Shown here piece by piece: positions 1 to 33,163 of a stretch of 64,000 nucleotides of DNA. Source of the stretch: Deltaproteobacteria bacterium GWA2_38_16 (GTDB lineage Bacteria; Bdellovibrionota; JACOXK01; 2-02-FULL-40-11). Where the stretch lies: NCBI GenBank assembly GCA_001797335.1, contig MGPE01000009.1, forward strand, positions 246 to 64,245. Reading direction: 5' to 3'. The notes under the pieces were generated by a model. The model worked only from the letters and a program-made list of their open reading frames with translations. It was not told the DNA's origin and did no database searches. The translations under genes were made by a program, and so were the position numbers. Within the stretch, counting starts at the first letter, position 1, and each line of letters begins with the position of its first letter.

Positions 1-2072
<2,072 letters not shown>

Positions 2073-2580: not shown

Positions 2581-3825
2581 TTATTGATCGACATCTGTAG
2601 TCTGTCGACGAATGAAGGTAGGGATGTCGTATTCATCATCGTCAAACCCCAGTGTTCCCATATCTTTAATCGGTCGACGGGAAGGCTTAGCAGCCGCTGG
2701 GGGTTCTTCTTTTGAAGCACTGGGGGGAGCTACCGTAGTTTGTTGAGGTTGAGCCGGTTTTACACCAAAACGCTCTTCTTGTTTTGGAAGAACTTGAGCA
2801 ATTTTGTCTCTTTCTTCTGCTCTCTTAAAGCCTGTGGCAATCACTGTAACTCTCACATCTTCTTTGAGTGCATTATCAATGACCGCACCAAAAATAATTT
2901 CTGCTTCCTCATGGGCAGCTTGTTGAATGAGAGAAGAAGCTTCATTGACCTCATAGAGGCTAAGCGATGGTCCACCGGTAATGTTGATGATAATACCGGT
3001 AGCCCCATCAATAGTAATATCTTCTAAGAGAGGACTTGAAATGGCCGAGGTCGCTGCTTGAATAGCTCTATTTTCACCCGATCCAACACCGGTTCCCATG
3101 AGCGCCATTCCTTTATTTTGCATAATGGTTCTAATATCGGCAAAATCGAGGTTAATTAGCCCTCGAATATTAATTAAATCTGAAATTCCTTGAACGGCAT
3201 TGAGCAACACTTCATCACATTTTTTAAACGTCTCTAAAAGCGGCATTTGTTGAGTAGCAATAGTTAAAAGTCTTTGATTGGGAATAACAATTAAAGTATC
3301 TACATTTTGCCTAAGCTCTTTAATTCCCGCTTCGGCTTGTCTCATTCTCTTTTTACCTTCAAACGTAAAAGGCTTGGTGACCACTCCTACCGTCAGAGCT
3401 CCCAGGTCTTTGGCAATTTGGGCAATAACCGGTGCTCCTCCGGTCCCTGTTCCTCCTCCCATGCCTGCTGTAACAAACACCATATCTGCCCCTTCCAACA
3501 CTTGAGCAATTTTTGAATGATCTTCCAGCGCGGCATTCTTCCCCACTTCTGGATTAGCTCCAGCCCCCAGTCCCTTCGTTAATCCCATTCCTAATTGTAC
3601 TTTATGAGGAACTTTAGCTGCTTCCAACGCCTGCCGATCCGTATTGGCAATAATAAATTCAACGCCTTCTAATCCTCCACTCACCATGGTTTCAACAGCG
3701 TTACTCCCGCCGCCACCGACACCCATGACTTTAATTTTTGCCCCTAACGTTGGATTATCATCAAATTCAAACATAAGATTTTCTCCTTTGGCCTTTTTTG
3801 CCATTAAAAGATCTCTGCGATCCAT
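2581..3825 (-). CDS. ftsZ: Cell division GTPase FtsZ.
   Basis: GGGGSNAV tubulin signature and [10 protein letters not shown]. Disordered Pro-rich C-terminal linker plus conserved C-terminal peptide DIPTFIRR. Last gene of the dcw cluster. Confidence 0.97.
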
Positions 3826-5030
3826 TCCACCATTCGTGATTTAACTTTATGATAAATATTGTGTTCTCTAATTTTAAACTTGGTATTAGACGTATCTTTA
3901 CTTCCGTAAAGAACAAGCCCCACACCGGTTGCATAAATCGGAGAACTCACAATATCCAGTAATCCTCCAAAGCCTTTTGGAACGCCTTTTTTGACAGGCA
4001 AATCAAATGTCATTTCTGCCAATTCTTGCATTCCATTTAATAATGTTGAACCTCCGGTAATCACAACACCGGACGCTAACAAATCTTCATAACCACTTTT
4101 TACAATTTCTCGTTGTACGAGAGATAAAATTTCTTCCACTCTGGGCTCAATAATTTGAGCAATTTCTTTTTTTGAAAATGTTCGAGATTTTCTTCCACCA
4201 ACGGTTTGTACTTCAATCAGTTCATCTTTTTGCACTAAGGATGTCATGGCACACCCGTATTGAATTTTAAGTTTTTCAGCATCAGGGGTAGGCGTTCTTA
4301 ATCCTACGGCCAGATCATTGGTAATATGATTTCCGCCTAACGATAAAACGGCGGTATGAACAATGCTCCCCCCAGAAAAAATAGCAATATCGGTAGTCCC
4401 CCCTCCGATATCAATGAGAGCTACTCCTAATTCTTTTTCATCGGCTTCTAACACAGCTTCAGAAGAAGCAATTTGTTGAAGAACAATGTCAGAAACATTA
4501 AGACCTGTTCGATTGGCACATTTAATAATATTTTGGGCCGAAGATACTGCTCCAGTCACAATATGAACTTTGGCTTCAAGACGAACACCACTCATCCCTA
4601 AAGGTTCTTTAATACCATCTTGATCATCAATAATATATTCTTGAGGAATAATGTGAATAACTTCGCGATCTAAAGGAATGGCCACCGCTTTTGCAGCGTC
4701 AATGACACGCCGGATATCGGTTTCTTTCACTTCTTTTTCTTTAACAGCCACAATGCCATGGCTATTGAATCCTTTGATATGTCCGCCGGCAATCCCACAA
4801 TAAACAGAACTAATTTCAACTCCTGCCATGAGTTCTGCTTCTTCAACTGCTTTTTTAATGGATTCAACCGTAGAATCGATATTAATGACAACGCCTTTTC
4901 GAAGACCTGTGGAAACTGAGGTCCCAATACCGACAATATCTACACCGATATCTGTTTTTTCACCGACAATTGCACAGATTTTTGTTGTTCCGATATCCAA
5001 CCCAACAATGATCTCGCCTTTTTTGGCCAC
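3804..5030 (-). CDS. ftsA: Cell division protein FtsA, actin-like ATPase.
   Basis: [25 protein letters not shown]-terminus. DIGGGTTD phosphate-2 motif. Sits immediately upstream of ftsZ. Confidence 0.95.
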
Positions 5031-5131: not shown

Positions 5132-5917
5132 CTATTTCGCAACCTTTACAACAACTTTTTTGGTGAAATTAAGATCAATTAGCGTCGGGGTGACTGTTTT
5201 TTGTGCAAGGTCTTTTAAGACCCTTTCCAGACGAGAAAACTTTTTAAGAAAATCTTCTTTTCCGAGTCTAATTTCAAAAGAAGGCCCCTCAGTAAAAAAA
5301 GTAAATCCTACGCTTTCTTTCCAATGGATTTCAGAAAGACGAATGTCCTTTAAAAAATTATTTTGATGATAAAGAGCCATCACGTCATACGCTTCTAAAA
5401 TCAAACGCTCTTCTTTTTCACTTACTTGAGGCCCACTCACTCCAGAAATAATGGGAAAATCCACATTTTCCCGAGGTCGAATGGGTGCAATTCTTATCCC
5501 TTTTGAATCTAAAAAATATAATTTTCCATAAGATTCATCGGAAGATAAAAGAGCTACTGGTTTTTTTTCTTCTACTTCGATTCTAAGTTTATTGGGAAGC
5601 AGTCGAAACACATGTGCTTTTTCTACCCAGGGATGTTTTTTAACATTAGCCGTTAATGCATTAAGATCAATTTCAAAAATATTTTCTCCTAGTGGAGCGT
5701 GAATTAATCCTTTTATTTCTTCTTCAGAAATATGTTCAGTGGATTGCGCCACCATTTCTTGAAATTTAAAAATAGGTAACCGTTGAATTCGTGGAAGCAT
5801 TTTTTGAGTAACTACCCATCCTCCTCCCACTAAAACAATAAGGAGGATAGCATACACGATAAGTTTTTTTTGAAGACTTCTATCTTTGGGGATTTCTTGT
5901 TTAATCTTTGTGTACAA
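5132..5917 (-). CDS. ftsQ: Cell division protein FtsQ/DivIB. Single TM plus POTRA domain.
   Basis: N-terminal TM helix (LIVYAILLIVLVGGGWVV). Size and position between murB and ftsA. Confidence 0.8.
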   Translation of the reverse strand: MYTKIKQEIPKDRSLQKKLIVYAILLIVLVGGGWVVTQKMLPRIQRLPIFKFQEMVAQSTEHISEEEIKGLIHAPLGENIFEIDLNALTANVKKHPWVEKAHVFRLLPNKLRIEVEEKKPVALLSSDESYGKLYFLDSKGIRIAPIRPRENVDFPIISGVSGPQVSEKEERLILEAYDVMALYHQNNFLKDIRLSEIHWKESVGFTFFTEGPSFEIRLGKEDFLKKFSRLERVLKDLAQKTVTPTLIDLNFTKKVVVKVAK

Positions 5918-6857
5918 TAATCACTTCTTCTTCTAAGGTTACACCATGAACTTCTTTAACTCTCTTTTTAGCATGCTCAATAATAGCCACAATATCTTTG
6001 GCCGCTGCTCCACCCAAATTCACAATAAAATTTCCATGTTTTGTCGAAATTTGTGCATGCCCTACTCGATAGCCTTTCAGTCCCGCATCTTCAATAAGCT
6101 TTCCGGCATAGTACCCTTTGGGATTTTTAAAAACAGATCCACAGTTAGGAAAATTTAAAGGTTGAATGGCTTTTCTTTCGGCAATTACCGTTTTAACCAC
6201 TTCCATCATTTTTTCCTTATCTCCATAATGAAGACGAAGAATAGCTCCCATCATAATCTTATTTTTACAAAAATTTTGAGAACGATATGAAAAATTTTCT
6301 TTCGTTACAAGTTGTTCTTCCAATTCTCCATTGGTATTAATCATAAATATTTTTTCTGTAATATCGCAAAAGCTGCCCCCTTTTGTCCCCGCATTCATAA
6401 AAATACCACCGCCCACTTGTCCAGGAACCCCTGCTAAAAATTCTAACCCAGAAAAACCCTGCTCTATCGACCAAAATAATAGTTTTTGTTTTAAGACGCC
6501 CGCTCCTACTTTCACTAAAATTTTTTCATCATCTTTGTGAATAATTTTTATCTCATCAAACAAAGACAAATTAATCACAACGCCTCGATATCCTTCATCA
6601 GGCATGACGAGGTTGGACCCATCTCCTAAAACAAAATAAGGAATTTTATGTTCATCAATTTTTTTCATGAGCTGAGAAAGCTCTACACTGTTTTTAGGAT
6701 AAATAAATGCATCGGCAGGCCCTCCTACTTTAAAAGAGGTGTGAAGGGCTAAGGGCTCATTCCATAAAATCTTACTTTGAAGCCCACTTAAAATATCCAC
6801 GAGTTTCACCGGTATTGTTTTTTTAAAACTTCTAAAAATTCTAAGCCACTCTTCCAA
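5901..6857 (-). CDS. murB: UDP-N-acetylenolpyruvoylglucosamine reductase MurB.
   Basis: FAD-binding region FKVGGPADAFIYPKN...YFVLGDGSNLV. C-terminal MurB domain. dcw context. Confidence 0.92.
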   Translation of the reverse strand: MEEWLRIFRSFKKTIPVKLVDILSGLQSKILWNEPLALHTSFKVGGPADAFIYPKNSVELSQLMKKIDEHKIPYFVLGDGSNLVMPDEGYRGVVINLSLFDEIKIIHKDDEKILVKVGAGVLKQKLLFWSIEQGFSGLEFLAGVPGQVGGGIFMNAGTKGGSFCDITEKIFMINTNGELEEQLVTKENFSYRSQNFCKNKIMMGAILRLHYGDKEKMMEVVKTVIAERKAIQPLNFPNCGSVFKNPKGYYAGKLIEDAGLKGYRVGHAQISTKHGNFIVNLGGAAAKDIVAIIEHAKKRVKEVHGVTLEEEVIIVHKD

Positions 6858-8185
6858 ATATCTCCAGCCCCTAAGAGTAATACAACATCCTTTGGCCTCA
6901 CATGTTTTTCCAGTTCATGAGAGATATTTCGACGACTTGCTACTAAACAAGCATGTTTATGTTTTTTTCGAAGAAGACGATATAATTTTTCTGAACTCAC
7001 CCCTTTAATGGGTTTTTCTCCAGCTGAATAAATTTCTGTGAGTAATAAAACATCTGCTCTTTGAAAAGCCCCAGAAAACTCTTTCATTAAATCCCGAGTT
7101 CGAGTGTAGCGATGCGGTTGAAAAACAGCCAGCAGTCGTCTTTTAGGCCACACTTTCTTACAGGCTTCAAGCGTGGCTTTAATTTCTGTGGGATGATGCC
7201 CATAATCATCCATGACCGTAATGCCATTCACCTCTCCTCGAATATGAAAGCGCCGCTGTACGCCACTATACGCTAAAATGCCTTTTTTTATTTTTGAAAG
7301 ACTTAACCCTAATTCAAGCCCCATAATAATGCAGGCCAAGGTATTTTTAACGTTATGAATCCCTGGAGCTTTTACTGAAAATCGTCCTAATTTTTTACGT
7401 TTAACATAGACATCAAAGGAACTGGTAATGCCTTTTAATTCAATGTGCCTGGCTTGAAAGTCACATCTTGAACTTATTCCATAGGTAATAATTCTTTTAT
7501 TCACCCGAGGGAGAATAGATAAAATATTTTTTTCATCTCCACAAACAATGCCTACCCCATAAAAAGGTAAACGATTTAAAAATGTTACAAAGGCATCTTT
7601 AATAGCCTCCATATTTTTATAATAGTCCAGGTGATCCGCATCGATATTGGTGACAATGGCAATCGTCGGAGTTAATAAATTAAAAGATCCATCACTTTCA
7701 TCGGCTTCAGCCACCAAAAATTTTCCTTGTCCCAATTTAGCATTGGTCCCCCACTTATTGAGTCTTCCTCCAATCACAACGGTTGGATCCACTTTACACG
7801 TAGCCAAAAGCGTTCCAGAGATTGAAGTCGTTGTTGTTTTTCCGTGAGTGCCAGCAATGGCAATGGCATATTTCATTTTCATAAGCTCTGCCAACATTTC
7901 TGCTCTTGGAATTACAGGAATTTTTAATTTTTTAGCTTTTAAAACTTCAGGATTACTTTTGGATACAGCAGAAGAAATAACAACCACATCAGGTTTTTTA
8001 ATATTCAAAGACCTATGACCTAGATAAATCGTAGCTCCTAATTGATTTAATCTTTTAGTAATTTCTGTAGTGGCAAGATCAGAGCCACTGATTTTATAGC
8101 CCAGGTTTAATAAAACCTCCGCAATCCCACTCATCCCAATCCCACCAATGCCTACAAAATGCACATGCCTAAAGCTTTTCTGCAT
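6806..8185 (-). CDS. murC: UDP-N-acetylmuramate--L-alanine ligase MurC.
   Basis: HFVGIGGIGMSGIAEVL N-terminus and GTHGKTTTTS P-loop. The first Met may be upstream of the real start; the ORF overlaps the murB end. Confidence 0.92.
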   Translation of the reverse strand: MQKSFRHVHFVGIGGIGMSGIAEVLLNLGYKISGSDLATTEITKRLNQLGATIYLGHRSLNIKKPDVVVISSAVSKSNPEVLKAKKLKIPVIPRAEMLAELMKMKYAIAIAGTHGKTTTTSISGTLLATCKVDPTVVIGGRLNKWGTNAKLGQGKFLVAEADESDGSFNLLTPTIAIVTNIDADHLDYYKNMEAIKDAFVTFLNRLPFYGVGIVCGDEKNILSILPRVNKRIITYGISSRCDFQARHIELKGITSSFDVYVKRKKLGRFSVKAPGIHNVKNTLACIIMGLELGLSLSKIKKGILAYSGVQRRFHIRGEVNGITVMDDYGHHPTEIKATLEACKKVWPKRRLLAVFQPHRYTRTRDLMKEFSGAFQRADVLLLTEIYSAGEKPIKGVSSEKLYRLLRKKHKHACLVASRRNISHELEKHVRPKDVVLLLGAGDIWKSGLEFLEVLKKQYR

Positions 8186-8227: not shown

Positions 8228-9280
8228 TTACGCGAGTAATTGATCCACAATGGCTTGGGCGGCGTAGGGATGAGAAAATTGAAGAATGTTTTTTCTCATG
8301 TGGTCAAGTTCTCTAGGATGCTCATAGGCATACTGAATTTCTTTAGCCAATTGCTGGCCATTGAGTTGCCAGTCTAAAAGTACCCGGGTCGCTCCTTTTT
8401 TTTCAAATGCACGAGCATTGGCTTCCTGATGATTATGGGCCGCATAGGGATACGGTACAAAAAGGCATGCTTTTCCTAAGACAGCAAGTTCTGCTACTGA
8501 GGATGCGCCAGCTCGACAAATGACATAATCAGATTGGGCATAAATTCTATCAATGTCGTCAATAAAATCATACACATCTGCTTTCCAATGTTGCTGAAAA
8601 TAAGTGGAAGCTACCCATTTTAAATCTGTTTTTCCGGTTTGATGAATAAGATGAATGCGATTTTTAAGCGTTTCTAAATAGGGGAGTGCTTCTAAGAGCG
8701 CTCGATTTAAGGAATGAGCTCCTTGGCTTCCTCCAAAAATAAAGACAGTAAATTTTTCATGAGGAATACTACTTGTACTCTTAAATTTTCGGACGGGATT
8801 TCCCGTTACAACACTTTTTTGAGAAGGAAAGTAGTGAACGGATTCATCAAAACTAACAAAAATTTTTTGAACCAATAAAGAAAGAATTTTATTGGTTAGC
8901 CCTGGCCTAAAATTTTGTTCTTGAATGGCTCTTTTTTTTCTCAATACCCATGCCATCCATAAAATAGGGAAACTGGCATAGCCTCCCACTCCTAAAATCA
9001 CATCAGGATTAAATTGCCGAATAATAAAAAAAGACTGAATTAAAGAAATAGGAATTAGACAAAGAGTAATAAATTTTTCTAAAGGATTTTTCCCTTTTAA
9101 CCCATCGATAGAAACAAATTTTAAGGGATAATGAAGACTGGGTAATACTTTGGCTTCAATTCCTTTTTTGGTCCCAACAAAAAGAATTTCATGATGGCCA
9201 CGACTTAAAAATTCTTGGGCAATCGCAACTCCTGGGAATAAATGCCCTCCGGTACCACCCCCTGCAATGAGTAACTTCAT
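8228..9280 (-). CDS. murG: Undecaprenyldiphospho-muramoylpentapeptide beta-N-acetylglucosaminyltransferase MurG.
   Basis: MKLLIAGGGTGGHLFPG N-terminus. GT28 fold. dcw context. Confidence 0.93.
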   Translation of the reverse strand: MKLLIAGGGTGGHLFPGVAIAQEFLSRGHHEILFVGTKKGIEAKVLPSLHYPLKFVSIDGLKGKNPLEKFITLCLIPISLIQSFFIIRQFNPDVILGVGGYASFPILWMAWVLRKKRAIQEQNFRPGLTNKILSLLVQKIFVSFDESVHYFPSQKSVVTGNPVRKFKSTSSIPHEKFTVFIFGGSQGAHSLNRALLEALPYLETLKNRIHLIHQTGKTDLKWVASTYFQQHWKADVYDFIDDIDRIYAQSDYVICRAGASSVAELAVLGKACLFVPYPYAAHNHQEANARAFEKKGATRVLLDWQLNGQQLAKEIQYAYEHPRELDHMRKNILQFSHPYAAQAIVDQLLA

Positions 9281-10395
9281 CGATACGTACTCGTTGAAAC
9301 ATCTTGTTGTTGAGCAGAAATATTTAACAATATTCCTACCCCCGCTAAATTACAAATAACAGAAGTACCTCCATAACTTAAAAAAGGAAGCGCTAAACCT
9401 TTTGTTGGAAGAAGCCCCATGACAACAGCAATATTGGTAATGGCTTGAAAACTAATAAGAGAGGTAATCCCCAAGGCTAAATAAGTTCCAAATAAATCGG
9501 GTGCTTTTAAACTAATGCGAATCCCTCGATATAAAAAGAGCACAAAAAGAATAATGACTGCCATGACTCCCATAAAACCCAATTCTTCTCCAATCACCGA
9601 AAAAATAAAATCTGTATGCGCTTCAGGAAGATAAAAAAGTTTTTGGCGCCCATCTCCAAGCCCTAATCCTAAAATATTTCCTGAATAAAATGCTAAAAAA
9701 GATTGAATAATTTGAAATCCCGTATTGGCTGGATCTTCCCAAGGATTTAAAAAAGCTAAAATTCTTTTTTTCCGATAGGGAGTACTCATCATCAGATAAC
9801 ACGCCGTTGGCACTAAAACGATTAGCGCAGAAATAATATATGAAAGACGGGTGCCTGCAGCAAAGAGCATTAAAAAAACAATAAAGGCAATAGAGACCGC
9901 TGTTCCAAAATCCGGTTGAAGAAGAAGAAGCCCCAAAAATAATCCTGTAACGATAAGATGAGGGACAAAACCAATGGCAAATGATTTCATGCTGCCTTCT
10001 TTTTTAGACAGTGAATAAGCCAGATAAAAAATAAGCGCATATTTAGCAAATTCCGATGGTTGAAATCGAAAAAATCCTAAATTTAGCCATCGTCTGGCTC
10101 CTCCTACTCGATGTCCAATGCCAGGAATCAAAAGGGCAATCATTAAGACTAAACAGATAAATAAAAAGGGATAAATGATTTTATAATAAGAATGATAATC
10201 AATGAGTAAAAAAACGATAAGAGCAATAAAGCCTAAAGAAGCAAAGAGAAATTGTTTTTTTAAAAAAAAATAACTGTCATGATAATTTTGGAGGGCATAA
10301 ATAGAACTGGAGCTATAGACCATGACAATACCAGAGAGCACTAAAACAAAAGTAATAACCAACAACCAATAATCAAAAGGAATCTTTCGACTCAT
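9277..10395 (-). CDS. ftsW: Peptidoglycan glycosyltransferase FtsW, SEDS family.
   Basis: About 10 TM helices and SEDS motifs. Sits between murD and murG. Confidence 0.9.
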   Translation of the reverse strand: MSRKIPFDYWLLVITFVLVLSGIVMVYSSSSIYALQNYHDSYFFLKKQFLFASLGFIALIVFLLIDYHSYYKIIYPFLFICLVLMIALLIPGIGHRVGGARRWLNLGFFRFQPSEFAKYALIFYLAYSLSKKEGSMKSFAIGFVPHLIVTGLFLGLLLLQPDFGTAVSIAFIVFLMLFAAGTRLSYIISALIVLVPTACYLMMSTPYRKKRILAFLNPWEDPANTGFQIIQSFLAFYSGNILGLGLGDGRQKLFYLPEAHTDFIFSVIGEELGFMGVMAVIILFVLFLYRGIRISLKAPDLFGTYLALGITSLISFQAITNIAVVMGLLPTKGLALPFLSYGGTSVICNLAGVGILLNISAQQQDVSTSTYR

Positions 10396-11750
10396 TATAA
10401 ATCACGCAAGAGTTCTTTAAACGTATCCCCCCTGTGCTCATAATTTTTAAACATATCGAAACTGGCACATCCTGGGGAAAATAAAATCACATCTCCGGCT
10501 CTAGATTTTTGATACGCCATAAAAATGGCTTCCTCTAACGTTCCCACAATAAAAGTTTCTGTATAATCCCCCACGGCTCGATTAATTTTTTCCTTGGCTT
10601 CCCCTAATAAAATAAGATTTTTTACTTTCTTTTGAACCAAAGGACGCAAGAGCTCAAAGTTGGCGTCTTTGTCTCTGCCTCCCATAATTAAAATTAATGG
10701 TTTATCAAAGCTTTCTAATGATCGAATGACCGAATAGACATTTGTTGCTTTAGAATCATTATAAAAATCCACATAACCTCGAGTTTTGACATATTCTAAC
10801 CGATGCGCCACTCCTTGAAATGAATTTAATGTTTGTTGAATTGATTCTGGAGAACATTTTAAAATTTTAGCAGCTAAAAGAGCAGCCATAAAGTTTTCTT
10901 TATTATGATCCCCTTTTAGTTTTATTTGATCCGTTAGGTATTGCTCATGCCAATCCTTGGTTTTTAAATAAAACCGATTGTCCTTATAATAAATTCCCTC
11001 TTGTCCATGGGCTAAATTCCCTTTAGTAAAATATAAGACTTTAGCTTTGGTTTCTTCGGCATAAGTTCTAATTAAATCATCTTGGGCATTTAAAATTAAA
11101 TAATCTGTCCCTTTTTGATTTTCAAAAATTCTTCCTTTAATTTTTCTATAATTTTCCATAGATCCATGACGATCTAGATGATCAGGCGTTAAATTCAGCA
11201 CAAGAGCAATCTTCGGATGAAAGGTTTCTATGGTTTCTAATTGAAAGCTGCTTACTTCTGAAACCACATATTGATATTCTTCCTTGGTTAATAAAATATT
11301 AGTTAGAGCATTCCCAATATTCCCTCCAACAAATGCTTTTTTCTTTGCATTTTGTAAAAATTGTCCCACCATCATGGTTGTCGTTGTTTTTCCGTTGGTA
11401 CCTGTAATGGCAACAATGGGTTCTTTAATAAAATGATATGCAAATTCAATTTCACTCATGATCTTTTTATTTTTCTTTTTGGCTTGTTCAATGAGAGGAT
11501 TTGTTATCCAAACTCCAGGGCTTACAATAAAAATATCATTAGAAAGTAATGTTTTAATGGGGTGACGTCCCAATTCATATTTTATTTTTTTATACGACCC
11601 TAAGAGTTTTAAATAAGGCTGCAACTCTGTTTTAGTTTTAATATCGGTAACGGTTACCTTAGCCCCACGAGAAGCTAAAAACTGAGCCACCGAAACACCA
11701 CTTCTGGCCAATCCCACAACCACTATTTTTTTTCCTTTTAGTTGGATCAT
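10395..11750 (-). CDS. murD: UDP-N-acetylmuramoylalanine--D-glutamate ligase MurD.
   Basis: KKIVVVGLARSGVSVAQFL N-terminus and GTNGKTTTT P-loop. Confidence 0.93.
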   Translation of the reverse strand: MIQLKGKKIVVVGLARSGVSVAQFLASRGAKVTVTDIKTKTELQPYLKLLGSYKKIKYELGRHPIKTLLSNDIFIVSPGVWITNPLIEQAKKKNKKIMSEIEFAYHFIKEPIVAITGTNGKTTTTMMVGQFLQNAKKKAFVGGNIGNALTNILLTKEEYQYVVSEVSSFQLETIETFHPKIALVLNLTPDHLDRHGSMENYRKIKGRIFENQKGTDYLILNAQDDLIRTYAEETKAKVLYFTKGNLAHGQEGIYYKDNRFYLKTKDWHEQYLTDQIKLKGDHNKENFMAALLAAKILKCSPESIQQTLNSFQGVAHRLEYVKTRGYVDFYNDSKATNVYSVIRSLESFDKPLILIMGGRDKDANFELLRPLVQKKVKNLILLGEAKEKINRAVGDYTETFIVGTLEEAIFMAYQKSRAGDVILFSPGCASFDMFKNYEHRGDTFKELLRDL

Positions 11751-27300: not shown

Positions 27301-28290
27301 TCATAACATATTCTTAAAATATAATAATATACGTCCTATGCCTTCTTCTAAATTTATACTTGGACTAAAACCTAATTCTTTTTGAAGCGCCACATCCCCG
27401 CCTCTCGCAAATACACCTTCAGGCATTTCTGACATTCCTGAAATAATTGGATCATGGTATCCTAATAATTTTATCACCACTTTTGAAAAGTGGACAAAAG
27501 ACGTTAAAATACCCGTTGATAGATTTATAGCTCTTCCATTATTTATTTTATCTTTTGTAATCAAGATACCTCTCACACAGTCATCAATATGAATAAAATC
27601 CCTCATCTGATAACCAGATCCCCAAACTTTAAATAATTTTTGTTGCTTGTTTTGAAGCTCCAATGCACGCAAACATAATGAAGGTACTGGATATGACCAA
27701 TCTTGATCTTCCCCATATCCAGAAAAAGGTCTATAGATCACACTCTTTAAATCATGCCTTTCATAAGCCAAGTGGGCTAGAAATTCTCCTGTTAACTTAG
27801 CCCAACCATAGGTTAAATCAGGAACACCAATAGTTTGAGAAAAATTAATATCATCTTCTTTTAAAAGACGAAAATTATCTTTCTCTTGAAGTTTTATTGG
27901 ATAGGCTGCGCTTGAGCTAAAATAAATAGTTTTTGGAATTTTATTTTGTTTAGCCCATTGCCAATAAGCCGAATCTATAGACAAATCCTCGGCTATGGCC
28001 AACGGATTTTTTTCTATCATCATTCTTCCACCCACAACAGCCGCTAAATGATACACCTCATCAAAGTATTCATTAGCGCATTGTACAAAAAAATTCCGAC
28101 AATCCTCTTGATAAAAAACAAAATTATGAAAATCGAGTGGATTAAATTGATACCATCCTTCTTGAGGATGCTTCCCTCCACATTCTTTCATCAAATTATC
28201 TACACAAACAACATCATAACCTTTTTCCAAAAAAATCTTACAAAAGCGCCGTCCAACAAATCCTGCACCCCCTGTTATAAGAACTCTCAT
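27301..28290 (-). CDS. NAD-dependent epimerase/dehydratase, extended SDR (nucleotide-sugar modifying).
   Basis: MRVLITGGAGFVGRRF Rossmann motif and a YxxxK-containing core. Confidence 0.85.
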   Translation of the reverse strand: MRVLITGGAGFVGRRFCKIFLEKGYDVVCVDNLMKECGGKHPQEGWYQFNPLDFHNFVFYQEDCRNFFVQCANEYFDEVYHLAAVVGGRMMIEKNPLAIAEDLSIDSAYWQWAKQNKIPKTIYFSSSAAYPIKLQEKDNFRLLKEDDINFSQTIGVPDLTYGWAKLTGEFLAHLAYERHDLKSVIYRPFSGYGEDQDWSYPVPSLCLRALELQNKQQKLFKVWGSGYQMRDFIHIDDCVRGILITKDKINNGRAINLSTGILTSFVHFSKVVIKLLGYHDPIISGMSEMPEGVFARGGDVALQKELGFSPSINLEEGIGRILLYFKNML

Positions 28291-29432
28291 GATTGTACTA
28301 CCTTTTCATAAATTTTTACGGTCTGCAAAGCACAATTTTCCCAAGAAAATTGTTTTGCTCTTATATACCCTTTTTCAATTAAACGTTGACGAAGGCTAGA
28401 ATCATTTAAAACTTGCCACATTCCATCTGCTATATCTTCCACATCCTCTGGATCTACAAAATAAGCGGCATCCCCTGAAATTTCTTTTGGGGCACTACAA
28501 TTTGAAGCTACCACAGGAGTTCCACATGACATTGCTTCTAAAAGTGGCAAACCAAAGCCTTCTATCAGTGAAGGAAAGACAAAAAGAGAAGCCTTTTCAT
28601 AAAAAGACTTAAGTTGTGAAAATGAAGGATTTTCAATAAACATAATATGCTGTTTCAAACCTAATTCTTTAACTTTTTCTATAATTTTAGAATAATAAGT
28701 TCCCTTCATGCCTACAAGATAAAGAAGATGCCCTAAGCCTTTTTTATTTACAAGAAAATGATATGCTTGAATAAGACGAATCAAATTCTTATGGGAAGCG
28801 GTTCTTCCTACCCACAAAATATAACTTTGAGACATAGAGGGTAAAAATTTCGGGGGACTCAACATAAAAGATGGGAGACCATTATAAATTACTTTAATTT
28901 TTCCCTCCGGAATTCTTATGTGCTCTAAGATATCTGTTTTAGAAGTTTCTGAAACGGTAATCACATAGGAGGATTGCATTGCTCCTCTTCTAATAGCTCC
29001 TTGCCAAAATTTTCTATCATAAAACGCTGTAACTGAAGAAGCTGCTTTAAAAGAAATGGCATCATGAACAGTAATTACAAAAGGACAGGGCACAAATAAA
29101 ACTCCCTGATTTGCTGGAAAATGTAATACATCGATATTAAATTGTTTTAAAAATGAATAAAAAAAAAGATTTCTCCAAAGTAGGGTCAACTTCAAATATT
29201 GATGAGAAACGGGGCATTTAACATAACAAAAATTTGGTGCAGAAACCCCATAGTAGTCTCCTGCATCATGATGAACAAAAATCGTATATTGGTTTTGTTG
29301 ATCAATAGCAGCTAAGGCAGAAATAAGTTCTTTTGTATATATCTGGAGGCCTCCTGTATCACCAATCCTCATTCCTAAAGTATCAATCCCGATATGCATA
29401 CAGTAAAGCCATAGCAGAGAGCAAGAAAACAC
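28287..29432 (-). CDS. Glycosyltransferase family 4. The likely real start is the internal MHIGIDTLG at about 29399.
   Basis: C-terminal ...ASLFVFPSLIEGFGLPLLEAMSCGTPVVASN GT4 motif. MHIGID resembles the canonical GT4 start MRIGID. Confidence 0.8.
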   Translation of the reverse strand: MFSCSLLWLYCMHIGIDTLGMRIGDTGGLQIYTKELISALAAIDQQNQYTIFVHHDAGDYYGVSAPNFCYVKCPVSHQYLKLTLLWRNLFFYSFLKQFNIDVLHFPANQGVLFVPCPFVITVHDAISFKAASSVTAFYDRKFWQGAIRRGAMQSSYVITVSETSKTDILEHIRIPEGKIKVIYNGLPSFMLSPPKFLPSMSQSYILWVGRTASHKNLIRLIQAYHFLVNKKGLGHLLYLVGMKGTYYSKIIEKVKELGLKQHIMFIENPSFSQLKSFYEKASLFVFPSLIEGFGLPLLEAMSCGTPVVASNCSAPKEISGDAAYFVDPEDVEDIADGMWQVLNDSSLRQRLIEKGYIRAKQFSWENCALQTVKIYEKVVQS

Positions 29433-29433
29433 C
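29387..29433. repeat. Left copy of a roughly 47-bp direct repeat flanking the AAA ATPase gene. It spans the GT4 start region.
   Basis: CCCGATATGCATACAGTAAAGCCATAGCAGAGAGCAAGAAAACACCC versus the copy at 30707-30753. About 83% identity. Confidence 0.6.
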
Positions 29434-29447
29434 CAAGATGAAAATAA

Positions 29448-30629
29448 TTAAAAAATATGCCCTTTAAAAAGTTTTTCTAAAAATGTTAAAATGGGCAACA
29501 CTTGTAAATCATGATAGGTTAAGATTTCTTTTCCCATATATACTCCATAAGCCTTAATGATATTAATCCCTTTTCGTCCCTGTAGAGATAAGATAGGCTT
29601 AAACCATTCTGATTTCCACTTTTTACTATATTTTACTTCAATACAGATAATTTCAGCTGGTTTATTTATCTTTTGTTTTGTTAATTCTATAATAAAATCA
29701 ATTTCACTCCCTTGAGTTGTCCGATAAAAAAAAAGTCCCCGATGTTTCTTACTATATTCATTATAAACTCTAAGTTCATGAAAAAAAATTGTCTCTAATG
29801 CCGTACCTGCCCATATTTCATCCATCGGTTCATACACAAGGTTTGAAGCTGCCCGGGCAACACCAGGATCAAACCAGTAAAACTTAGAATGTGTTACTTC
29901 GCGAACTTTAAGATTCGGTCTATAGGAAGATAAAAAATGTCCCAAAAGAGTATCACTTAATATGCCAAAATAATTATCTACATTACTCCTTGAAATCATT
30001 GCATCTCGTGAAATATTAGAGGCATTGATCTGCTGACCATTGAGTTTACCTGCCACTTCTAAAAATCTTAAAAATGGGTCTAGTTTTCTCACTACCCCTT
30101 CTTCTTTAATTTCTTCTTTTATATAGGTATGAACATAGGTCTGTAAGGTTTCAGCTGCATCTTCTGGATAAAGATGTACAAGGGGTAATAAACCATATTG
30201 AATGGCTCGACCAAGATTATATTGATGACCTAATTCACCGTAAGAAAATTGTTCCATATTTTTTGTCAGTGCACGTCCAGCCAATAAATTAGCTCCCTCT
30301 CGCTTCAGTTTACGGGCAGACGAACCACTTAAAGCAAATTTTAAATGCCGCTCTTCCATAAGGCGATGTACCTCATCCAAGAGGCGAGGCACTTTTTGTA
30401 CTTCATCGATCCATATCCATTCAGGAGGATTATTCCCAATAAGAGATTCTAATTCCTCAGGATGAGCACTAAGACGAACTTGAAGGTCTGTTTTCAATAA
30501 ATCAAATCTTTGAGCATTCAACAAAGCGTGGTCAAGCCAGGTACTTTTTCCTACTCCCCTGGGACCAAATAAAAAAAAGGACCTATTGGGCACTGTCAAA
30601 AGACGAGAGATAGAATGCAGTTTCTTCAT
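29448..30629 (-). CDS. AAA-family ATPase of the DUF4143 type (AAA_14 + DUF4143 architecture).
   Basis: Walker A LFGPRGVGKST and Walker B IWIDEVQ. Typical architecture of the widespread stand-alone ATPase family. Flanked by direct repeats. Has its own palindromic upstream region. Confidence 0.75.
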   Translation of the reverse strand: MKKLHSISRLLTVPNRSFFLFGPRGVGKSTWLDHALLNAQRFDLLKTDLQVRLSAHPEELESLIGNNPPEWIWIDEVQKVPRLLDEVHRLMEERHLKFALSGSSARKLKREGANLLAGRALTKNMEQFSYGELGHQYNLGRAIQYGLLPLVHLYPEDAAETLQTYVHTYIKEEIKEEGVVRKLDPFLRFLEVAGKLNGQQINASNISRDAMISRSNVDNYFGILSDTLLGHFLSSYRPNLKVREVTHSKFYWFDPGVARAASNLVYEPMDEIWAGTALETIFFHELRVYNEYSKKHRGLFFYRTTQGSEIDFIIELTKQKINKPAEIICIEVKYSKKWKSEWFKPILSLQGRKGINIIKAYGVYMGKEILTYHDLQVLPILTFLEKLFKGHIF

Positions 30630-30630
30630 A

Positions 30631-30664
30631 ATTGCATTTTAACATTATAATATAAAAATGCAAT
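30631..30664. promoter_or_regulatory. Palindrome ATTGCATTTT-N14-AAAATGCAAT directly upstream of the AAA ATPase gene. The spacer contains TATAAT. Candidate promoter/operator.
   Basis: Perfect 10-bp inverted repeat read directly. A third half-site, AAAATGCATT, follows at about 30686. Confidence 0.4.
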
Positions 30665-30851
30665 GCAAATTTACATCATAGCATAAAAATGCATTAACCC
30701 TTGTTCCGATACGCATAGGGTAAGGCGATAGCAGAGAGCGAGAAAACACCCAAAACAAAAGTAAAGAGAATAAGTCGAAAGGTAAACCTTTCCCTAGGAT
30801 AAACATAAATAGCCTTAACAAACCAAAGATTAAAAATGTTATCATCTGCAT
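30645..30851 (-). pseudogene. Remnant duplicate of the GT4 5' end (MRIGT...) within the right-hand direct repeat. Not a functional gene.
   Basis: Encodes ...PMRIGTRVNAF, matching the GT4 start MHIGIDTLG of the left repeat copy. Overlaps the 3' end of the 510-aa membrane protein gene. Confidence 0.4.
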
Positions 30852-32226
30852 TTTTATCTAACACTTCTTTTAAAGCCGTTTTATCAATAATTTCTGTATT
30901 TCTGGCATATAATTTTTTCAAACTATCCTCTGAAACATGCCTCCATTCAAATGTTTTCATCCGTTTCAAAAAATAGGGAATCCCCTTCCCTAATTGATAA
31001 ATCGCATTTAATTTTGGATCGTTATAGTAACGAACCGCGTCTAGCTTATGATAAAAATATTGGGGTAAATCATACCTATAATTAGTCATATGTACATAAT
31101 AAGTATAGCCTACTAATACTCCAACCATTTGAAATAGTATCCCTATAGACACCAAAATAGAGCAGATATATTTAATATATCGATTTAAAAAATTAAAGCT
31201 CTCTGCAAGAAATAATAAACAAAAAGGAATTATGACCAATAAATATCTGGGTCCCCAGACAGGATCTCCAGCAAAAAAACGAACATTGGCATAAAAAATA
31301 ATATAGCTTGTACTTAGCAAGAAAATCGTCATAGCTTCCGTTTTAAATTTTTTATAGAAAAAGGGGAATAAAAAAACGCTCAAAAGTAAAATAGGATTAA
31401 AAATAAAAATACTTTTCCCAGGACTCAATAAAAGTCCTCGTAAACCATTTAAAAATGGTTTTAAAGAAACCATTTCAAAATAGGCATTCGCCCACCAAGA
31501 AAAATTGGCCCATGTAATAGAAAGTTTAAAAAATAAAAAAATAATGATGGGCATCAAAATAAAAGCCGGATATATAAATACTTTTTTAACATCGGCTTTT
31601 GTTTGAATGAGCAAAAAAATCCATGCTGGTAGTGTGAGTACAAACGTATATCGGGTTATAAATCCTAGAATCATCATCATTAAAGAAATATAAAAATAAC
31701 GATACAACTTTAATTTTTGAAATTTTAAGAGAAAATAAAATGTGGCCAATGCAAAAAAACCTTCCTGAACAGCATCATGCATGGATTTTGAATACACCCA
31801 CACCATCGTTGAAAAAGCCAAGATAAAGGTCATTGTAAAACTTATTTTTTTAGAATAATTGAGGAGCAGTAAAAGATTAAAAAAGAAAAGACATAGGCCT
31901 GCCGCAAAAAAAGCATTTAAAAAAGTACTAAAAAAGTGCCCTCCGTGTAAAATACCAGGCCCTAACCAATTTCCTAAAGCATAAAGAGGAATAAATCCAA
32001 ATACCTGTCCCCAATGCATATTTGGAAATTGAGATAATCTAATCAGATCTTGCTCATGATATCCTGTATAACGAAAACCTTCTTGAAAATCAGGAGGACT
32101 TTTAATAACTAAAGATTGAGCTTGTTTATAACGCACCCATCCATCTAGACAATCAAAATCACCCGCAGCTGTTAAAAGAAAACAAGAAAGCAAGAAAAGA
32201 AATAAGATAAGGTTACGTAACATCAA
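30694..32226 (-). CDS. Polytopic membrane protein. Possible GT-C type glycosyltransferase (ArnT/PMT-like) or polymerase.
   Basis: More than 10 predicted TM helices. Located in the glycan locus. No strong motif identified. Confidence 0.5.
   Translation of the reverse strand: MMLRNLILFLFLLSCFLLTAAGDFDCLDGWVRYKQAQSLVIKSPPDFQEGFRYTGYHEQDLIRLSQFPNMHWGQVFGFIPLYALGNWLGPGILHGGHFFSTFLNAFFAAGLCLFFFNLLLLLNYSKKISFTMTFILAFSTMVWVYSKSMHDAVQEGFFALATFYFLLKFQKLKLYRYFYISLMMMILGFITRYTFVLTLPAWIFLLIQTKADVKKVFIYPAFILMPIIIFLFFKLSITWANFSWWANAYFEMVSLKPFLNGLRGLLLSPGKSIFIFNPILLLSVFLFPFFYKKFKTEAMTIFLLSTSYIIFYANVRFFAGDPVWGPRYLLVIIPFCLLFLAESFNFLNRYIKYICSILVSIGILFQMVGVLVGYTYYVHMTNYRYDLPQYFYHKLDAVRYYNDPKLNAIYQLGKGIPYFLKRMKTFEWRHVSEDSLKKLYARNTEIIDKTALKEVLDKNADDNIFNLWFVKAIYVYPRERFTFRLILFTFVLGVFSLSAIALPYAYRNKG
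30707..30753. repeat. Right copy of the roughly 47-bp direct repeat flanking the AAA ATPase gene. It lies in the 3' end of the membrane protein gene.
   Basis: TCCGATACGCATAGGGTAAGGCGATAGCAGAGAGCGAGAAAACACCC. Confidence 0.6.
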
Positions 32227-32263: not shown

Positions 32264-33163
32264 TTAGGGATTATTCCCTGGAGCAGGATTATCCGGATTA
32301 GCAGCTCCTTCGGTTGTACCACCAGCTTGTATGTCTTGAGCAGCACTCGTCCCCGACGAAATCGCTGCAGCTACTTGAGTGCTATCTGCCGCACCAGCTG
32401 GGTTAGTACTGGGACTTGTTGTTTCAGTTGCGGTTTGAGCCGTCGTCGCAGGAGTAGCAAGAGGTGCAGTAGGCGTTGCAATGCTAGGAATCTTATTCTC
32501 AGGTGGTGCAGTAATAGTTACTGTTGTTATAGTATTTCCTTTTTCATCAACAATCGCAGCCATTCCATTTTGAACTCTTTCAGGATTTAAAAATGCGCTA
32601 TCTGAGGGTTTATATACAGTGATATATCCATCATAACTATTCACTTTTACGCTCCCCATTGCGAGGTGCTCGGTTATAACATCAGATCCTCGCACACCTA
32701 CGGTTACCGCAGGTGTTACAACCCGTATTTCATCTCCTGTTTTTAATCCCTTGGCTAAGGTTCTTAAAATTCCTTGGGTATGCTGAACCACGACTTTTTT
32801 ATTTCCAGCCTTATCAACAATGGCCTTATCAATTTTAAACTTAGAATTTTCATAAATAAAAAAAGCCAATTGCTCTTTTGATTTTTTGCCTTCATCTAAA
32901 AGCACTCGGACAGCACTATTAGGACCGGTTGTAATCCAATCATCATAAAACAAGGGGTCATTGAGTTTTAGAATAACTGTTTTAGCTTCTCTCGTATATT
33001 TTAGTTCATTGACCTTTCCCGAAACTTCAATCACCTTACCCGCTGGGACCAAGGCTCCATGGAGTTGGTACTGATGATAGAGAAGTGTGGGTATGGTAAA
33101 TAACACCACCAACATAAAGATAACTGTATAGTGAATTTTCCCAAATTGATTAAGTTTTTTCAT
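32264..33163 (-). CDS. Membrane-anchored periplasmic protein with a FecR-like beta domain and a Pro/Thr/Ala-rich low-complexity C-terminal tail.
   Basis: N-terminal TM (TVIFMLVVLFTIPTLLY). Middle beta-rich domain. C-terminal ATPTAPLATPATTAQTATETTSPSTNPAGAAD tail. Confidence 0.5.
   Translation of the reverse strand: MKKLNQFGKIHYTVIFMLVVLFTIPTLLYHQYQLHGALVPAGKVIEVSGKVNELKYTREAKTVILKLNDPLFYDDWITTGPNSAVRVLLDEGKKSKEQLAFFIYENSKFKIDKAIVDKAGNKKVVVQHTQGILRTLAKGLKTGDEIRVVTPAVTVGVRGSDVITEHLAMGSVKVNSYDGYITVYKPSDSAFLNPERVQNGMAAIVDEKGNTITTVTITAPPENKIPSIATPTAPLATPATTAQTATETTSPSTNPAGAADSTQVAAAISSGTSAAQDIQAGGTTEGAANPDNPAPGNNP

Follow-up and report, generated by a model that had tools for sequence, protein, structure and literature searches.

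How does a single gene come to lie inside an operon, between two genes that once overlapped, without damaging either of them? This question is raised by a locus in Deltaproteobacteria bacterium GWA2_38_16, a member of the Bdellovibrionota in the GTDB taxonomy, in which a stand-alone AAA+ ATPase gene of the DUF4143 type separates a membrane protein gene from a glycosyltransferase gene. The stretch analysed, referred to as the window, comprises 64,000 nucleotides (nt) of contig MGPE01000009.1 (assembly GCA_001797335.1, positions 246 to 64,245 of the forward strand), and coordinates are positions within it. An original prediction, made from the sequence alone, proposed that the ATPase gene occupies a gene-sized insertion into a formerly overlapping junction of the two flanking genes. 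This proposal is supported by an in-frame relic of the membrane protein gene, by the limits of sister cassettes, by a conserved promoter that belongs to the inserted unit, and by flank duplications that recur at other loci. The locus is probably a single-gene insertion, old and fixed, in which a DUF4143 cassette entered the overlap between two genes and the junction was duplicated.

Anatomy of the duplicated junction

The features on which the argument depends are listed in the order of their coordinates.

28287..29399, minus strand: GT4 glycosyltransferase gene (370 amino acids, start MHIGID; Pfam Glycos_transf_1 and Glyco_transf_4), the downstream partner of the reconstructed ancestral overlap
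29383..29388, minus strand: GAT TGA, last codon and old stop of the relic, overlapping GT4 codons 4-6 (ancestral overlapping junction)
29389..29447, minus strand: downstream (relic) repeat copy, the old membrane-gene 3' end, in frame (IFILGVFLLSAMALLYAYR); contains the real GT4 start
29448..30629, minus strand: gene for a 393-amino-acid AAA+ ATPase/winged-helix/PD-(D/E)XK nuclease (AAA_14 and DUF4143; PADLOC PDC-S01), from Pfam, PADLOC and a structure model
30694..30705, minus strand: new tail AAC AAG GGT TAA (NKG-stop), which now ends the membrane gene (stop 30694-30696); spacer between the repeat and conserved cassette DNA
30706..30764, minus strand: upstream (live) repeat copy, encoding TFVLGVFSLSAIALPYAYR, the C-terminal helix of the membrane protein; contains the copy of the GT4 start, ATGCGTATCGG
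30694..32223, minus strand: polytopic GT-C-like membrane protein gene (open reading frame, ORF, of 509 amino acids), whose 3' end is the insertion target

The direct repeats of about 47 bp and 83% identity that were first noticed are real, and they lie inside an ungapped 59-nt repeat (29389-29447 versus 30706-30764, spacing 1317 nt) that extends another 12-14 nt, up to the ATPase stop codon. Alignment of the two copies gives 49 identical positions out of 59 (83%), with a 48-nt core at 87.5% identity (blastn against the whole window, E = 3.4e-7). In local alignment the copies score 34, compared with a mean of 9.5 and a maximum of 14.5 among shuffles (z = 18.8), and the repeat has a copy number of 2 in the 64 kb. 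The 1258 nt between the copies hold one DUF4143/AAA_14 gene only, the single ORF with the Walker A motif GPRGVGKST that had been described as a stand-alone ATPase. The layout can be written as A-B-(1258 nt)-B-C, with the insertion point 2 codons before the old membrane-gene stop.

The copies were said to hold, on the left, the real GT4 start and, on the right, a duplicate of that start fused to the stop region of the membrane gene. Both statements agree with the data. The GT4 ATG at 29399-29397 is confirmed by the nearest GT4 homologs, which begin MHIGIN or MHVGIN, and in the right copy ATGCGTATCGG is followed by AAC AAG GGT TAA. Read in the frame of the membrane protein, the left copy gives IFILGVFLLSAMALLYAYRD and a stop codon, and the live C-terminus is TFVLGVFSLSAIALPYAYRNKG and a stop codon. 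The first base of the relic copy directly follows the ATPase stop codon (29448-29450), with 0 nt between them. The relic TGA (29383-29385) lies inside GT4 codons 5-6, which is the classic layout of overlapping, translationally coupled genes. The left copy is non-coding save for 11 nt of GT4, so the copies have no protein motif in common. No further fragments of the membrane protein were found in the window.

The ATPase gene and its regulatory region

The protein encoded between the repeats has been assigned by several independent matches. The N-terminal AAA_14 P-loop domain (PF13173) was matched at E = 1.8e-19 (70.5 bits versus a cut-off of 27) and the C-terminal DUF4143 domain (PF13635) at E = 1.5e-27 (96.7 bits versus a cut-off of 28.1), and seven PDC-S01 profile hidden Markov models of PADLOC match the ATPase, the best at E = 8.3e-50. 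Among 25 homologs, the Walker A (G22-T30) and Walker B (WIWIDE, D75 E76) motifs are invariant. D311, E331 and K333 (D...E-x-K) are also invariant in homologs and lie on consecutive strands of a structure model with a pLDDT (predicted local distance difference test) of 89.6. In the model, an AAA+ module is accompanied by a three-helix-plus-wing module (residues 183-252) and by an alpha/beta nuclease module with D311, E331 and K333; the AAA+ fold is closest to the AAA+ modules of RuvB, clamp loaders and ORC. DUF4143 has been assigned to the PD-(D/E)XK superfamily (PMC3424549), and the combination of an ATPase with PD-(D/E)XK has been described (PMC12988326; PMC3424549). Comparison of the window ORF with two sister-cassette ORFs gives a ratio of nonsynonymous to synonymous divergence (dN/dS) of 0.06-0.08 at dS 1.0-1.3, and the ATPase is therefore under strong purifying selection.

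Selection acts on the region upstream of the gene as well as on the protein. The elements of this region are as follows.

30630..30693, minus strand: cassette regulatory region, with half-sites, TATAAT, TAAAAT and then 6 nt to the ATG
30631..30664, no strand assigned: perfect palindrome with 10-nt arms, ATTGCATTTT-N14-AAAATGCAAT, matched in 0 of 100 shuffles
30636-30641, minus strand: TG-extended -10-like TAAAAT, conserved in the family, 6 nt from the ATG
30644-30649, minus strand: TATAAT, in the spacer of the first-noted palindrome
30664-30675, minus strand: half-site TGTAAATTTGCA, which forms the family palindrome with TGCATTTTTATA (30651-30662)

The original prediction had given the gene its own palindromic promoter/operator, with TATAAT in the spacer. 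The palindrome and the regulatory character of the region hold up, the region being conserved across phyla; the family -10 element is TAAAAT, not the TATAAT of the spacer. The first-noted palindrome is the right half of the family palindrome paired with a third half-site. The 64 nt 5' of the ATPase gene are 83% identical to the sister cassette despite a dS of about 1. Across 27 family loci from many phyla the upstream consensus is CAATTTTnCAnTnATnTTGTAAAATTGCATTGCAATTTTACAAnATAnTTGTATAATTGCAnTATG (in short form, TTGTAAAATTGCATTGCAATTTTACAA...TTGTATAATTGCAnTATG), and conservation stops about 68 nt before the ATG. There are 3 or 4 half-sites resembling TGTAAAATTGCA in alternating orientation, the last of which overlaps the TG-extended -10 box ending 6 nt before the ATG. 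No Shine-Dalgarno sequence was found between the -10 box and the ATG, and a sigma-70 scan misses the cassette promoter (no good -35 box). The geometry of the -10 box and the ATG suggests that the ATPase mRNA is probably leaderless or nearly so, and that of the half-sites suggests that the protein probably represses its own gene by binding them with its winged-helix domain. No credible Rfam match to an RNA element was obtained in the cassette. There is no terminator 3' of the ATPase ORF, and transcription should therefore continue into GT4.

The cassette as a unit and its relatives

The same ATPase was sought elsewhere, and sister cassettes were found in different gene contexts. In blastn comparisons of loci L011, L015 and L017 with the window, the only match is 30692-29444 (1249 nt, 82.5%), and the homology of L099 reaches 29447. 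The sister cassettes are 81-82.5% identical in nucleotide sequence, and homology ends within 4 nt of the ATPase stop codon in both. These limits equal those of the inter-repeat DNA within 3 nt on the 3' side and 13 nt on the 5' side. Three cassettes thus have three contexts: GT-C and GT4 genes in the window; a FecR-domain gene and a 748-amino-acid gene in L017, whose protein (P0014, labelled Bdellovibrionota) has 85% amino acid identity; and a downstream Fic-like ORF in L099, whose protein (P0013) has 88%. No direct repeats were found around the sister cassette L017. The cassette is a self-contained unit of 1.25 kb, made up of about 64-76 nt of promoter/operator and a 393-codon ORF.

The family to which it belongs is large. 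Among 8000 candidates examined, 7981 proteins match with E < 1e-10, and nearly all listed homologs are within a few residues of 393 amino acids. After the two sisters, the next-closest proteins are 55-61% identical, and family hosts include Nitrospinia, Aminicenantes, Desulfobacterales, Chlamydiae, Elusimicrobia, Latescibacterota and Planctomycetota. The membrane protein next to the ATPase, by contrast, has relatives above 31% identity in its own species only. No close relative of the ATPase was found on viral contigs, and plasmids gave one 45% match (a Simkania negevensis plasmid) and otherwise relatives at 23-29% identity only. We infer that the DUF4143 family spreads horizontally as a compact unit. 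In the literature, no description was found of a cassette structure, a conserved operator, insertion scars or mobility of DUF4143 genes. The compact cassette with a promoter/operator common to many phyla and the recurrent duplication of host gene ends are the parts for which no earlier account was found.

Recurrence of the scar at other loci

Is the duplication peculiar to this locus? Around family genes with enough flanking sequence, the 250 nt upstream were aligned to the 250 nt downstream together with the last 30 nt of the ORF, in a sample of 59 genome loci and 80 metagenome loci; other ORFs of at least 250 amino acids in the same loci served as controls, and a score of at least 20 was the threshold. 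Flanking direct repeats were found for 13 of 108 family genes (12%) and for 3 of 240 other ORFs (about 1%), an odds ratio of 10.8 (Fisher p = 3e-5). Two of the three control matches are themselves AAA+ ATPases, one a second DUF4143 ATPase (L142) and the other an ATPase_2-type gene (L078). Most family loci have no flanking repeats; where repeats are present they measure 25-107 nt, with 82-92% identity.

Four further independent loci have the clean A-B-cassette-B-C layout of the window, B being the very 3' end of a host gene with the same orientation as the cassette.

L114: B is 107 nt of a PIN/VapC-like gene; live tail K-stop, relic tail SRN-stop
L111/L113: B is 96 nt of a gene ending ...GEYRTRRLVLEAWDKL-stop
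L091: B is 31 nt of a Cys/Met-metabolism gene dependent on pyridoxal phosphate (PLP); the ATPase ORF reads into the duplicated host sequence
L175: B is 29 nt, the host stop codon among them; as in L091, the ATPase ORF continues into the duplicated host sequence

No general preference of the family for gene 3' ends was seen: distances to the upstream gene vary widely, and co-orientation is seen in 53 of 75 upstream neighbours.

Several of these loci have further features of their own. L111 carries three direct copies of one gene's 3' end (208-303, 1721-1816 and 3060-3132; the end ...GEYRTRRLVLEAWDKL-stop), which separate the DUF4143 cassette from a 1.2-kb block that resembles toxin-antitoxin genes by eye (UPF0175-like, DUF433-like and DUF5615-like). 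The locus resembles an array of small cassettes that built up at a single gene end with no integrase, and L113 is an orthologous, more decayed version. Because the third copy follows the toxin-antitoxin segment, the gene-end scar also bounds other small cassettes. In L091, from a gammaproteobacterial metagenome-assembled genome (MAG), three DUF4143-type paralogs with 21-23% mutual identity lie within 6 kb (3535-4512 on the minus strand, 5989-7188 and 8588-9520) and adjoin the PLP-dependent gene.

Repeats of other kinds were seen as well. The L078 gene (9218-10627, in a Bdellovibrionota MAG) encodes a different AAA+ ATPase (Walker A GRRRVGKS; ATPase_2/DUF234-like by eye) and has on either side a 40-nt palindromic repeat (9158-9197 and 10641-10680, 97.5% identity), further copies of which lie at 9100-9139. 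In L142, the second, distant DUF4143-type ATPase (533-1795, minus strand) shares its locus with a family member and is flanked by a gapped direct repeat of about 62 nt. In L120, a 131-nt element resembling a miniature inverted-repeat transposable element lies on either side of the ATPase cassette (2794-2924 and 4243-4373); its terminal inverted repeats are perfect and 12 nt long (GAGACCTTTGAA...TTCAAAGGTCTC), and it contains GTCATTCCCGCG...CGGGAATCC hairpins; a similar hairpin motif is found 3' of the cassette in L051. In L093, a Bacteroidales MAG, a 34%-identical family member lies between two copies of a Bacteroidetes-type promoter (TTTG...TACCTTTGCA; 5870-5926 and 7107-7162), of which one would serve the ATPase and one the gene downstream; 7415-7450 holds a third, partial copy.

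Age and origin of the duplication

When did the insertion take place? The Jukes-Cantor distance between the repeat copies is 0.19, far below the sister-cassette dS of about 1. A contrast in G+C content or codon usage with the neighbours, which had been suggested as a check, is not seen: the G+C content at third codon positions (GC3) is 0.249 in the ATPase gene and 0.22-0.30 in its neighbours, with no compositional anomaly. The short repeat distance and the equal GC3 indicate that the insertion took place after the cassette lineages had separated and yet is not recent; the match in GC and GC3 means that it is old or came from a similar donor genome. Groundwater metagenome contigs and the NCBI MAG contig DOGW01000007.1 match the window at 100% identity. 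The same structure is present, at 99.7% identity or more, in over 24 independent contigs of several projects (ENA, JGI, Logan and NCBI assemblies). The structure is therefore no assembly artefact, and the insertion is fixed in the sampled population.

How could such a layout arise? The cassette would have entered the glycan operon in operon orientation, 2 codons before the stop of the GT-C gene, whose end would formerly have overlapped the GT4 start. The event would have left the last 59 nt of the membrane gene in duplicate. Upstream, one copy would complete the gene with the new tail NKG-stop, and the downstream copy would be a dead relic that keeps the original sequence context of the GT4 start, with both neighbours surviving. 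Recombination would have joined two diverged alleles of the same gene end, either by homologous crossover at one side combined with an illegitimate join at the cassette's 3' side, or by Campbell-type integration of a circular cassette carrying the gene end. Once established, the cassette would be transcribed from its own TG-extended -10 promoter, autorepressed, with read-through into GT4.

Recombination between diverged alleles is the inferred origin, favoured over self-transposition or a target duplication made by a transposase. When the five clean cases are pooled, third codon positions account for 30 of 47 differences between copies, and synonymous changes for 24 of 40 differing codons, an excess (p = 0.005) over the ~44% expected under neutral decay of one copy, although this 0.44 expectation is a rough estimate. 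Because the differences are mostly synonymous, the copies appear to have diverged largely while both were coding, which suggests two alleles of one gene end. A comparison of the 5' region and the reverse-complemented 3' end at 94 loci gave no terminal inverted repeats for the family (mean z 0.45); the window itself gives z = 4.1, on an AT-rich 12-point match only. No transposase or recombinase was found in the ATPase, which has AAA_14 and DUF4143 domains only, or among the neighbours. A transposase-type mechanism is disfavoured by these absences, by the repeat lengths of 25-107 nt, by an imprecise 3' junction, by the lack of any repeat pair above 92% identity and by the lack of a general target preference.

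Several points weigh against the reading of the locus as an insertion by allelic recombination. In the window alone the codon signal is weak, with 1, 3 and 6 differences at codon positions 1, 2 and 3 and 5 of 19 residues differing; taken by itself, the window could possibly be a decayed true target duplication. The clean class comprises 5 independent cases only, the window included. Many flanking repeats elsewhere are dispersed genomic repeats (L041, L120, L165 and, on sequence grounds, possibly L144), and stand-alone genes with intergenic DNA on both sides are likelier to acquire such repeats. The neutral flanks of any gene are unalignable at a dS of about 1, and sharp homology limits alone are thus no proof of the limits of a mobile unit. 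The comparison of syntenic loci yielded no empty site: exact-protein look-ups of the ATPase, GT4, the membrane protein and a further database protein, P0012, returned the same structure only, and no cassette-free relative was found, so that the ancestral state is reconstructed rather than observed. For the membrane protein, no homolog falls in the range from 30% to 91% identity. The nearest GT4 homologs, at 53-54% identity, are on one contig without retrievable DNA and on another that is not syntenic. Finally, autorepression and leaderless expression were deduced from sequence only.

Could the ATPase-nuclease have moved itself? It would then be an autonomous single-gene mobile element whose own PD-(D/E)XK domain makes cuts staggered by tens of bases, followed by joining and gap repair into a long target duplication that has decayed to 83%. 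Such an element would account for the roughly 10-fold enrichment of flanking repeats around family genes, for the downstream copy that begins 0-20 nt past the stop codon in the window, L114, L091 and L175, and for the upstream copy that ends about 3-15 nt from the conserved promoter block in the window, L057 and L114. It would also suit the invariant nuclease and ATPase motifs and a length near 393 amino acids kept across many phyla. This explanation is nevertheless unlikely. The family lacks terminal inverted repeats or other common end motifs, repeat length and 3' junction vary as described, and the repeat pairs combine identities of at most 92% with a bias to synonymous sites. Near-identical copies in other contexts were not seen (P0012, at 99% identity, is in the same context), and there is no general preference for a type of target. 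In addition, L111 has a like gene-end repeat around a toxin-antitoxin segment without an ATPase, and the scar is thus not specific to the gene. In its widest form, the idea would make DUF4143/PDC-S01 a very large class of autonomous single-gene selfish elements, whose AAA+/PD-(D/E)XK protein would recognise the 5' end that bears its own operator and bring about its insertion. Widely and variably spaced nicks, or stimulated recombination of the flanks, would then give long, variable host duplications. This proposal is distinctly improbable; if it were true, the abundance of these genes in 'defence islands' would reflect selfish spread and not immunity.

A different history would leave the ATPase where it always was and make the left repeat the remnant of a second, paralogous membrane gene, or of a tandem duplication, of which deletion spared just the last 59 nt. 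The relic keeps its frame and an intact stop, as would be expected of a gene remnant, and L111 shows that partial copies of one gene end can pile up in tandem. However, the start of the relic coincides with the ATPase stop codon, its end is the point at which the live copy departs into the cassette-side tail, and these limits equal the homology limits of the sister cassettes, which is not expected of random deletion. Sister cassettes that are 81-82.5% identical lie between unrelated genes, and no other membrane-protein fragment is present in the window. This history is improbable. The least credible explanation is that the repeat reflects chance similarity, a common protein motif or mis-assembly. 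An AT-rich region (about 34% GC) does inflate short matches, but chance is opposed by a z of 18.8 versus shuffles and an E of 3e-7 within the window, a common motif by the non-coding left copy, and mis-assembly by the identical structure in the independent contigs from the four sources. On these grounds chance, a common motif and mis-assembly were rejected.

Neighbouring genes and provenance

The gene order, all on the minus strand, is the 509-amino-acid membrane protein, the 393-amino-acid ATPase, GT4, an NAD-dependent epimerase, a 755-amino-acid GT1-domain protein and ABC-2 exporter genes. The membrane protein has 0 Pfam matches of its own, and its distant homologs (25-31% identity) contain PF13231, PF02366 or PF03901, which are GT-C families (PMT_2, PMT, Glyco_transf_22). 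A database variant of it (P0002, 464 amino acids) is nearly identical and lacks an internal stretch of 44 residues (KLSITWANFSWW...SPGKSIFI); this gap may be a strain deletion, an assembly artefact or a gene-calling artefact. Immediately 5' of the membrane gene is an ORF of 299 amino acids (32264-33163, minus strand) with no Pfam match and a low-complexity C-terminus rich in Pro, Thr and Ala. GC is locally higher in this region (0.41-0.44 versus about 0.33 nearby).

Some assemblies of the locus end within the cassette. The contigs behind L007 and L025 start at 30631 and those behind L008 and L024 at 30664, which are the two palindrome arms. Other assemblies (L027, L038, L039) stop inside the ATPase ORF, at about 29984-30049 of the window. 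The breaks are likely due to the inverted repeat and to k-mers in common with a sister cassette that co-occurs in the same samples.

Implications and comparison with known systems

The locus offers an unusually clean view of how a common PDC-S01-type gene enters a genome and leaves its neighbours undamaged. The upstream region found across phyla, with its 3-4 half-sites, and the recurring 3'-end scars provide handles for experiments. PDC-S01, an ATPase plus PD-(D/E)XK, is reportedly the 4th most common defence candidate across prokaryotes, and most such candidates still await validation in experiments (PMC12988326). One PDC-S01 representative was challenged in E. coli B with T7, T5 and T4 and was absent from the four candidates that protected (bioRxiv 10.1101/2024.09.26.614923). 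Are the abundant DUF4143 genes immune genes, or are they mainly successful hitch-hikers? The suggestion that this gene is mobile or defence cargo stands only as far as a self-contained, horizontally moving cassette is concerned, and does not extend to self-movement or phage defence.

How does the window unit compare with known systems? Its protein matches the PDC-S01 (COG1373, PADLOC) models and both Pfam domains and has the same architecture. By sequence, it is a PDC-S01/COG1373 member for which a role in phage defence is a candidate function. The window gene sits in a glycan operon and not in a defence island, its neighbours being the GT-C, GT4, epimerase, GT1-domain and ABC-2 exporter genes; some relatives adjoin toxin-antitoxin genes or methylase fragments (L017, L111, L114).

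In homology-facilitated illegitimate recombination, foreign DNA integrates in naturally transformable bacteria through a one-sided homologous anchor and an illegitimate join. The scars resemble its products in the variable lengths of duplicated host DNA, in one imprecise and one constant junction, and in the mostly synonymous differences between copies. They differ in that an earlier first insertion beside the same gene in a relative is needed; no donor allele, transformation system or junction microhomology could be shown. Integrative islands and phages that enter gene 3' ends (typically tRNA genes, with attL and attR) also target a gene end and supply a new functional one, leave imperfect direct repeats of tens of bases and can accrete in tandem at one site, as in L111. 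An att-type layout, with imperfect repeats of the target 3' end and the end restored, was found in the window (59 nt and NKG-stop), L114, L111/L113, L091 and L175. Unlike these elements, the window insert is a single gene of 1.26 kb without an integrase or recombinase, and the targets are protein-coding and differ by locus.

Other small mobile units share fewer features with the cassette. Integron gene cassettes are likewise single-gene mobile units in one orientation, but they are usually promoterless and end in attC, whereas the window unit has its own promoter and 0 nt of 3' non-coding DNA; no integrase or attI was found near it. Insertion sequences and DNA transposons are also flanked by direct repeats of host DNA; here, the repeats of 25-107 nt are not short or fixed, and there are no terminal inverted repeats, transposase domain or identical copies elsewhere. 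The free-standing homing endonuclease genes of phages are a further parallel, being stand-alone nuclease genes wedged between conserved genes with both left undestroyed. They copy themselves into an allelic site by double-strand-break repair with no target duplication, whereas the window gene, for which viral contigs gave no close relative, lies between two copies of its neighbour's end.

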